Source: an uncultured Actinomycetota bacterium
GTDB taxonomy: Bacteria; Actinomycetota; Actinomycetes; Mycobacteriales; QHCD01
Assembly: GCA_963828605.1 (NCBI GenBank)
Contig: CAWHER010000001.1
Span: forward strand, 334,102 to 398,101
DNA length: 64,000 nt
Reading direction: 5' to 3'
A program made the position numbers and the translations under genes. Below are positions 26,521 through 26,785 of this stretch, in pieces. Each line of letters opens with the position of its first letter. The first letter of the stretch is position 1. The notes below the pieces were generated by a model. It saw only the letters and a program-made list of their open reading frames with translations, was not told the origin of the DNA and searched no databases.

Positions 26521-26785
26521 GGCTTGAACGTGACGTTCAAGCCAAATGATGGGGGCCGGCGTTCCGCATGAACGTGACGTTGATGCGGCAAGAGCGCTTG
26601 AACGTGACGTTCATGCGGAATGGCGCGCGGAAAGTTGGCGGAAAGTTGCCGACCCCTTTCCGCATCAACGTGACGTTGATGCGGCAAGAGCGCTTGAACG
26701 TGACGTTCAAGCGGAATGGGGCGGCGCCGTTTGGCATCAACGTGACGTTGATGCCGCTAGAAGGCTTGAACGTGACGTTCAAGCC
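26521..26785. repeat. Array of seven 23-25-bp palindromes sharing the core AACGTGACGTT, in two alternating arm types
   Basis: Palindrome centres are at 26532, 26576, 26606, 26672, 26702, 26744 and 26774. Copies 26521-43, 26660-84, 26691-713, 26733-55 and 26763-85 are perfect. Copies 26564-88 and 26595-617 each have one arm mismatch. The array is intergenic, 39 bp after the VWA stop and 123 bp before the fabG1 GTG. Confidence 0.95.

Follow-up and report, generated by a model that had tools for sequence, protein, structure and literature searches.

Between a gene for a VWA-domain protein and a fabG-like gene of an uncultured Actinomycetota bacterium lies an array of seven palindromes that all carry the core AACGTGACGTT. 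It was found in the window analysed here, that is, the whole stretch of 64,000 nucleotides taken from contig CAWHER010000001.1, to which all coordinates without a locus label refer. We propose that the array consists of clustered copies of an extragenic palindromic repeat that is lineage-specific and genome-wide, similar to the repetitive extragenic palindromes and bacterial interspersed mosaic elements (REP/BIME) of proteobacteria, and likewise to REP doublets forming hairpins (REPINs) and MITEs (miniature transposable elements with inverted repeats), and that it was expanded at this site by local duplication. We put the probability of this reading at about 0.82. A preliminary description of the same DNA had listed a REP/BIME/MITE-like dispersed element as the third of its options, and this option is now supported by the presence of the unit at 37 other arrays in two sister genomes.

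The array and its dispersed unit

A pattern search of the window returns seven exact AACGTGACGTT cores between 26527 and 26779 (starts at 26527, 26571, 26601, 26667, 26697, 26739 and 26769), all on the + strand and confined to the array; the mean in shuffled sequence is 0.01, and none of 100 shuffles reaches seven. The layout, as given by a repeat search, is one solo palindrome in front, which starts 33 bp past the VWA stop codon, then three tandem units of 72-96 bp, each made of a B-type and an A-type palindrome, whose successive starts are 96 and 72 bp apart (Table 1). Every sequence detail of the preliminary description stands: the seven palindromes (centres 26532, 26576, 26606, 26672, 26702, 26744 and 26774) do share an identical core, the two arm types are as described, and the B-A centres are exactly 30 bp apart. 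The same holds for the two arm deviations (G26570 and T26614), for 26564-26575 as the reverse complement of 26607-26618, for the 29 bp, flank included, that are identical at copies 1 and 7, for the CAAGAG linker common to the first two B-A pairs, and for the two copies of GCGGAAAGTTG at 26627-26648 with CTTTCCGC at 26656-26663.

Alignment of 48 units, from which a covariance model (R1) was built, gives the consensus CCCC-ATTCCGC-ATCAACGTGACGTTGAT-GCGG-CTAGAG-CGC-TTGAACGTGACGTTCAA-GCGGAAT-GGGG. The unit is thus 69-73 nt long and consists of two perfect 21-25 bp hairpins in the order B then A, with centres 30 bp apart and a conserved CTAGAG linker between them, bounded by terminal inverted repeats of 9-11 nt (CC-ATTCCGC ... 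GCGGAAT-GG). Two sub-variants differ by four coordinated changes, v1 having CCGC/GCGG with CGC/GCG and v2 having CGGC/GCCG with GGC/GCC, and within arrays they tend to take turns, the period being 72-74 bp. Mean column identity over the alignment is 89%, the non-palindromic linker and flanks included; since these parts are conserved too, the copies must be regarded as homologous, as one element and not as independently evolved binding sites. The same model finds no further unit in the 64-kb window, where the next best match scores 14 bits (E = 0.09).

The dispersal of the unit was seen in a scan of 185,579 species-representative genomes (596 Gb) with the pattern CWTSAACGTGACGTTSAWG, which matched at least 110 stretches. 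Among the matches listed, at least 21 stretches belong to the metagenome-assembled genome (MAG) MFD01213.bin.1.215 and at least 10 to the MAG MFD05442.bin.3.622, both labelled 'uncultured Actinomycetota', on 13 contigs that together amount to ~6.7 Mb. These listed stretches hold at least 87 (MFD01213) and at least 26 (MFD05442) exact cores, nearly always paired at a distance of exactly 30 bp; for the fetched portions of both genomes the counts are at least 87 and at least 29, every core being intergenic. With the covariance model, ~60 distinct units were recognised in at least 37 arrays of the two MAGs, ranging from single units to eight palindromes. The segment that the window has in common with the MAGs according to blastn, 26653-26729, corresponds to one B+A pair with its flanks. 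The remaining matches of the scan, at least 79 of those listed, were set aside as chance: each is a lone core that lacks the flanks and lies in coding-like sequence from an unrelated phylum, and their number is near the ~70 chance matches that we estimated by hand for this pattern in 596 Gb.

Elsewhere the searches were negative. The model detects no unit at the corresponding loci of more distant relatives, blastn gives no match in the plasmid collection, and a linker-spanning pattern matches neither viral contigs nor JGI metagenome contigs; six JGI metagenome matches to the 21-mer A palindrome were rejected as unrelated, being single sites in apparently coding DNA of lower G+C content. No Rfam 15 family reaches its gathering threshold on the array (the best score, 19.4 bits for sX8 against the 50 needed, is at chance level), and a literature search for the motif string returned primers only, while one for REP or MITE elements of Mycobacteriales returned nothing relevant. 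Provisionally, and among the matches listed, the repeat family thus appears confined to one genus-level clade.

Folding, genomic placement and the rival explanations

When the 48 units are modelled as two hairpins with a stem that closes them, the hairpins are 95.8% and 97.5% paired and the outer stem 76%, with covariation. Compensatory double changes affect pairs 11-33 (12 sequences), 16-28 (8), 14-30 (4) and 41-63 (13), counts that stand for few events because the unit copies share descent; the covariation score reaches 0.135, compared with 0.071 in shuffles, none of 500 shuffles reaching the observed value, and at most 0.036 when the partners are slid. A single long hairpin was rejected as the general fold, as it is only 80% paired, with mismatches that coincide exactly with the differences between the B and A arms, which indicates that the difference between the arms keeps the two hairpins separate. 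Folded as single-stranded DNA, canonical units take a Y shape at -23 to -29 kcal/mol, and over the units folded the energies lie between -23 and -30 kcal/mol per unit (z -6 to -9). In the window, unit 2 folds as a Y at -27.3 kcal/mol and unit 3 at -23.4 kcal/mol; unit 1 flips to one long hairpin (-30 kcal/mol) because of G26570 and T26614, in agreement with the alternative long pairing that had been suggested for these two deviations. As RNA, the whole array folds at -181 kcal/mol on the + strand (z -10.5) and at -167 kcal/mol on the - strand (z -14). Mismatches within hairpins are rare, and the 11 G.T against 4 A.C are too few to indicate a functional strand.

The placement of the arrays was judged from crude gene calls based on G+C content at third codon positions, corrected by listings of open reading frames (ORFs). 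All 38 arrays (37 in the MAGs plus that of the window) are intergenic: 14 between convergent genes, 17 between genes in one direction and 5 between divergent ones, the remaining 2 being unclear. Typically 10-40 bp separate an array from the nearest stop codon, and the orientation of an array is unrelated to the direction of its upstream gene over the 38 arrays. Convergent and divergent spacers are equal in number in any genome, so that 14 against 5 (binomial p ~0.03) indicates a preference for 3' ends. A like distribution, in convergent and unidirectional spacers near stop codons, has been reported for REPs (PMC3733652). The 60 proteins encoded beside the arrays match 84 Pfam families and range from DNA ligase, polyphosphate kinase and HisG to riboflavin enzymes, MFS transporters and peptidases; no family is common to more than two of them, which argues that the arrays do not define a regulon.

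At three loci (L001 ~343-360, L050 ~2757-2778 and L053 ~2810-2831), the upstream ORF ends at a TGA within the GTGACG of hairpin B; the stop codon is then provided by the element, unless these ORFs are over-extended. Peptides encoded by the repeat, such as ...LNVTFK..., recur in the six-frame ORF lists.

These data bear directly on the reading that the preliminary description had preferred, in which a dimeric regulator bound to the seven palindromes would control fabG1-inhA-hemH, the array being its local multi-site operator. It is true that the array consists of perfect 21-25 bp palindromes, spaced by about three helical turns (30 bp), upstream of fabG. However, the unit stands beside unrelated genes at the 37 other arrays, and 14 arrays lie between convergent genes, where no promoter is expected. 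At the locus itself, the closest relative, a sister species, has a different set of copies, and distant relatives whose spacers of 27-78 bp are devoid of the unit nevertheless retain the -10-like box of fabG; in the window this box (TAGCCT, 26858-26863) lies ~60 bp downstream of the end of the array. Moreover, linker and flanks are conserved like the palindromes, as expected from copying and not from convergent binding sites. An operator motif should be limited to the regulated promoter and conserved there; this one is dispersed, varies in the sister species (locus L111) and is absent from relatives L118 and L122, and we therefore reject the operator as very improbable.

Resemblances to known boxes were also considered: the HspR-associated inverted repeat (HAIR) and the boxes of LexA and KstR are unlike the palindromes in spacing and in their inner bases, and all three were set aside. 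The preliminary description was right to discount HAIR, as CTTGA/TCAAG arms are confined to type A and the genomic distribution is unlike a heat-shock regulon.

A second rival is a stack of intrinsic terminators that arose in evolution to serve the VWA operon. In its favour, the hairpins have great stability, the first starts 33 bp past the VWA stop codon, and the distance to stop codons noted above is typical of the whole family. Mycobacterial RNA polymerase is reported to need a U-tract at intrinsic terminators, and there is none after the hairpins on either strand (GGAATGGGG comes after the hairpins on both strands); a scan of 26300-27000 for intrinsic terminators gives 0 sites. Units in both orientations relative to the upstream gene, and five arrays between divergent genes, also speak against it, and we hold this explanation to be quite unlikely. 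The hairpin stack after VWA that had been suggested beforehand is thus plausible as a consequence at this site, and it fails as a classical intrinsic terminator. Transcripts reading through from the MoxR-DUF58-VWA operon would either stop in seven very stable hairpins or run through them, and such a stack can shield a 3' end from exonucleases and hinder read-through into fabG. We consider that a 3'-end hairpin role for the upstream operon would be the most likely physiological consequence of the array.

One may also ask whether the units are genome-wide sites for a DNA-binding protein, be it a nucleoid-associated protein, a topoisomerase as at the BIMEs of Escherichia coli, or a global regulator. 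The paired changes preserve the symmetry of the palindromes, as a dimeric protein would need too, the 30-bp phasing is constant, and BIMEs are known to bind proteins (PMC2817692). On the other side, the neighbouring genes are functionally incoherent, the sites are mostly at 3' ends and not at promoters, the non-palindromic linker and flanks are equally conserved, and arrays vary freely between sister species; the restriction of the family to one genus-level clade among the matches listed does not imply a conserved host protein either. We regard this explanation as unlikely.

Several observations weigh against the dispersed, copied repeat that we favour, and they should be stated together. Orthologous copies are far better conserved than the nearby spacer, which suits protein-binding sites as well. 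The dispersal is seen in the MAGs of sister species, and the window's own 64 kb holds one array. The copy number, with tens of loci per genome, is modest and below that of classical REP families, the MAG counts being lower bounds. The copies were collected with an exact-match pattern, so that the invariance of the core is partly an effect of ascertainment. No target-site duplication was found: the flanks are rich in C on the left and in G on the right, complementary to each other, and they extend the inverted repeat. No Y1/HUH transposase signature was found in the ~330 kb of fetched DNA, a sampling that is uninformative on this point, and we found no clean pair of filled and empty sites for a single unit.

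Copying of the unit and history of this locus

Evidence for copying within genomes comes from a CGCGTC variant of the left arm of hairpin B, which is present at six loci of MFD05442, in none of the 35 units of MFD01213 and in none of the three units of the window; one of these six loci has an orthologue in MFD01213 that carries the A variant. Such a genome-specific variant suggests that copies within a genome were made alike after speciation, whether through new copies or through conversion. Continued copying, as transposition by an enzyme acting in trans or as gene conversion, would keep up this likeness. The fetched DNA has no parent insertion sequence (IS) with the same ends, and no transposase gene, tnpA and tnpB included, was met among the array neighbours, a sampling too small to claim absence; the genes bracketed by units at L053 and L018 are a DUF559-like ORF and ABC-transporter genes, not transposases.

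In its general features the family works like REP/BIME. As in Enterobacteriaceae and Pseudomonas (PMC3733652, PMC2817692), we find short, near-perfect palindromes of 21-25 bp repeated in extragenic DNA near stop codons, in convergent and unidirectional spacers, forming mosaic clusters of up to eight palindromes in which two hairpin variants alternate with fixed linkers (B/A and v1/v2 here, Y/Z there), with cluster sizes that vary between related genomes and other repeat families interleaved. The differences are that there is no sequence similarity, that the stems here are perfect and longer (10-12 bp), and that tens and not hundreds of loci per genome are occupied. The GTAG/CGTC tag at the hairpin foot that characterises the REP super-families (PMC3733652) is absent, CGTC/GACG being confined to the loop and CTAG to the linker. 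Because this tag is lacking and any association with REP-associated tyrosine transposases (RAYTs) would be putative, we do not file the family, which is new and narrowly distributed, as a member of the classical REP super-families. In the REP/RAYT surveys examined, PMC3733652 included, Actinobacteria are not mentioned as hosts.

Other known systems share part of these features. Like a REPIN, the unit is a doublet that shows dyad symmetry as a whole and has a short spacer; it passes vertically to orthologous sites, persists across species and has genome-specific variants in the within-genome population, and the window unit 26555-26627 does adopt the long hairpin. Unlike in REPINs, canonical units prefer two hairpins with a closing stem, and the loop bases of both hairpins share polarity. 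As in MITEs or the PATE-type elements derived from IS200/IS605, the element is ~70 nt long, non-coding, multicopy and intergenic, with AT-poorer hairpins and terminal inverted repeats (CC-ATTCCGC / GCGGAAT-GG), and as at IS200/IS605 ends both hairpins have the same polarity without flanking duplication. The difference from MITEs is that the ~330 kb inspected showed no target-site duplication, no parent IS with the same ends and no tnpA or tnpB nearby. Mycobacterial interspersed repetitive units (MIRUs), from the same bacterial order, are likewise dispersed intergenic units of 50-100 bp that form tandem arrays with copy numbers varying between relatives. They are, though, direct repeats that follow the orientation of the operon, and perfect palindromes are not their building blocks; the architecture here is different, the units being palindromic and present in both orientations.

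We would go one step further, more speculatively, and suggest that the element could be a REPIN-like 'resident replicator', possibly the first to be described in Mycobacteriales: Y-shaped with its two hairpins, inherited vertically, uniform within a genome, and copied by a single-copy enzyme. This is a tentative idea to which we give well under even odds. The enzyme might be a RAYT-like Y1 transposase, or it may be another one, since the REP surveys list no Actinobacteria; the B and A hairpins would be its left-end and right-end recognition structures.

A second palindromic family was noticed at eight MAG loci, in or beside the AACGTGACGTT arrays (Table 1). It consists of an inverted pair of GACATCGTGCGYC ~46 nt apart, with an inner GTAC/GTAG (CCGACATCGTGCGCCGTACTCG...CGAGTAGGACGCACGATGTCGG), forms a BIME-like mosaic with the first, and is absent from the window.

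The history of the VWA-fabG array can be followed in MFD05442, where the homologue on contig_15010 (locus L111) is 95% identical to the VWA protein of the window. Over window 15501-37522 this locus is collinear, with a nucleotide identity of 85-89%, so that MFD05442 can be taken as a sister species of the window organism; MFD01213 and MFD05442 are 84-87% identical over two orthologous loci. The L111 spacer measures 528 bp and, of the array, holds only unit 2 and the last A hairpin, together with a B hairpin that has decayed and carries an insertion. Unit 2 is ~96% identical between the two species, against 85-89% for the surrounding genes; in unit 3, the A hairpin is conserved and the B hairpin decayed. 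According to the alignment, palindromes 1-3 and the 11-bp duplication are absent from L111, and three other repeats of the L111 spacer have no counterpart in the window. Two observations belong here: L111 has an inverted repeat GATCAAGAGG...CCTCTTGATC and ~4 tandem copies of GGGCACCTTGGGCGGT (10985-11050 and 11137-11190), neither of which is in the window. The VWA-fabG spacer of the sister species appears to be a nest for repeats. Relatives whose VWA proteins are 78% and 64% identical have spacers of 27 bp and 78 bp, without the element. At the other two loci comparable between MFD01213 and MFD05442, units stand at orthologous positions, with a different array composition in one of them; these copies are 96-98% identical, and the adjacent spacer is not alignable.

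The ancestral spacer would thus have been short, with the fabG promoter abutting the VWA stop, and a v1-v2 pair of units would have entered this spacer of 27-78 bp before the window species and MFD05442 separated. The window lineage would then have enlarged the array locally, unit 2 giving unit 1, palindrome 7 with its flank giving palindrome 1, and an 11-bp slip being added. Palindrome 1 is identical over 29 bp to 26763-26791 and gives a partial covariance-model match at 26495-26553 (38.7 bits), so it is probably a duplicate of palindrome 7 and its flank, and unit 1 is best read from its sequence as a local duplicate of unit 2, the linker being CAAGAG in both and TAAGAG in L111. This retains local duplication as the way in which the array grew. 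It does not make the array a purely local tandem repeat, a variable-number tandem repeat or MIRU-type product of slippage unrelated to other loci. Such an explanation could invoke the three tandem units of 72-96 bp, the 11-bp slip and the copy number different from that of the sister species, but the unit occurs singly at many loci, over 13 contigs and in two other genomes, and we deem it extremely improbable.

Table 1. Repeats of the VWA-fabG spacer, the genes and conserved block around them, and sites of the second palindromic family in sister genomes
Feature	Position	Strand	Support and remarks
VWA/BatA-domain gene, last of the MoxR-DUF58-VWA operon	25517..26482	+	Pfam VWA_2, VWA, BatA; 321 aa, 100% identical to P0001
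Palindrome 1, solo A-type (v2) hairpin with both terminal half-sites	26516..26549	+	GGTTCGGC-TTGAACGTGACGTTCAA-GCCAAATGA
Unit 1 (palindromes 2+3), v1 with G26570 and T26614	26555..26627	+	covariance model, 83.9 bits
11-bp tandem duplication, GCGGAAAGTTG x2, at the unit 1/unit 2 junction	26627..26648	+	Tandem Repeats Finder: period 11, 2.0 copies, 100% matches
Unit 2 (palindromes 4+5), canonical v1	26651..26723	+	covariance model, 94.1 bits; orthologue L111 11251-11323
Unit 3 (palindromes 6+7), v2 (GTTTGGC...GCCAAAT)	26723..26795	+	covariance model, 82.1 bits
Conserved block upstream of fabG, outside the repeat	26823..26907	+	~95% conserved with L111; TAGCCT 26858-26863 and 12-codon upstream ORF
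FabG1-like 3-oxoacyl-ACP reductase gene	26908..27612	+	L111 gene call of 234 aa agrees
Second-family sites	L111 11066-11135; L012 2984-3042; L025 3025-3083; L087 3357-3415; L014 3435; L024 3137; L078 6085; L109 1906		

Neighbouring genes, the fabG promoter block and what the array means

The genes upstream of the array encode, according to Pfam, a MoxR AAA+ protein, a DUF58 protein and the VWA/BatA protein, and those downstream a FabG-type short-chain reductase, a FabI/InhA-type reductase, a ferrochelatase and an esterase. The neighbours named in the preliminary description are therefore correct, and the labels fabG1 and inhA (26908-28438) are approximate, as both products remain below the mycolic-acid-specific NCBIfam cut-offs: 363 bits against 420 for mycolic_FabG1, and 314 against 430 for the mycolic-specific InhA model, the second reductase passing the generic FabI equivalog (418 against 299). 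The true start of FabG is the GTG at 26908 and not the ORF start at 26788.

The block between array and fabG (Table 1) is likely, as judged from its conservation, to be the promoter and leader of fabG. GGTAGCCTC, which matches the TAGCCT box of the window, is present in L118 and L122, both without the array; a sigma-70 promoter scan gives 0 sites. An ATG at 26873, 9 nt after TAGCCT, opens an upstream ORF of 12 codons (26873-26911) whose TGA overlaps the fabG GTG at 26908. This arrangement is conserved in L111, and in the relative L118 the same GGTAGCCTCATCCGGACATG itself serves as the fabG start. It seems that an ancestral, apparently leaderless fabG start became a coupled upstream ORF after an insertion of 35 nt.

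Some observations concern the rest of the window. The PF00756 'putative esterase' (ORF 29589-30659; window 29527-30645), between the ferrochelatase gene and an Rv1486c-like gene, is missing from the sister genome, where L111 14109 and 14113 join window 29526 and 30646, a gene-sized indel between the species; its protein has no NCBIfam match at 1e-20. The MoxR ORF (21958-24555) is 865 aa at its longest, with an AAA_3 domain that starts at residue 531, and its L111 orthologue is called at 394 aa, which makes the window ORF's N-terminal half a probable over-extension in high-G+C DNA. The sole match in the window at Rfam gathering level is a tRNA (62737-62822, - strand).

For annotation, these results mean that the array should not be read as the fabG1-inhA regulatory region, the likely promoter being downstream of it and older than the array. 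They also have a practical side: arrays of this type are hypervariable markers, and they are likely to give rise to spurious ORFs (the 'LNVTFK' peptides) and to trouble in assembly or alignment. More generally, they provide a compact and defined palindromic family in a phylum where elements of REP/REPIN type are hardly documented, and the orthologous copies in three species, together with the genome-specific variants, offer a usable case for the study of repeat copying and homogenisation in high-G+C actinobacteria.

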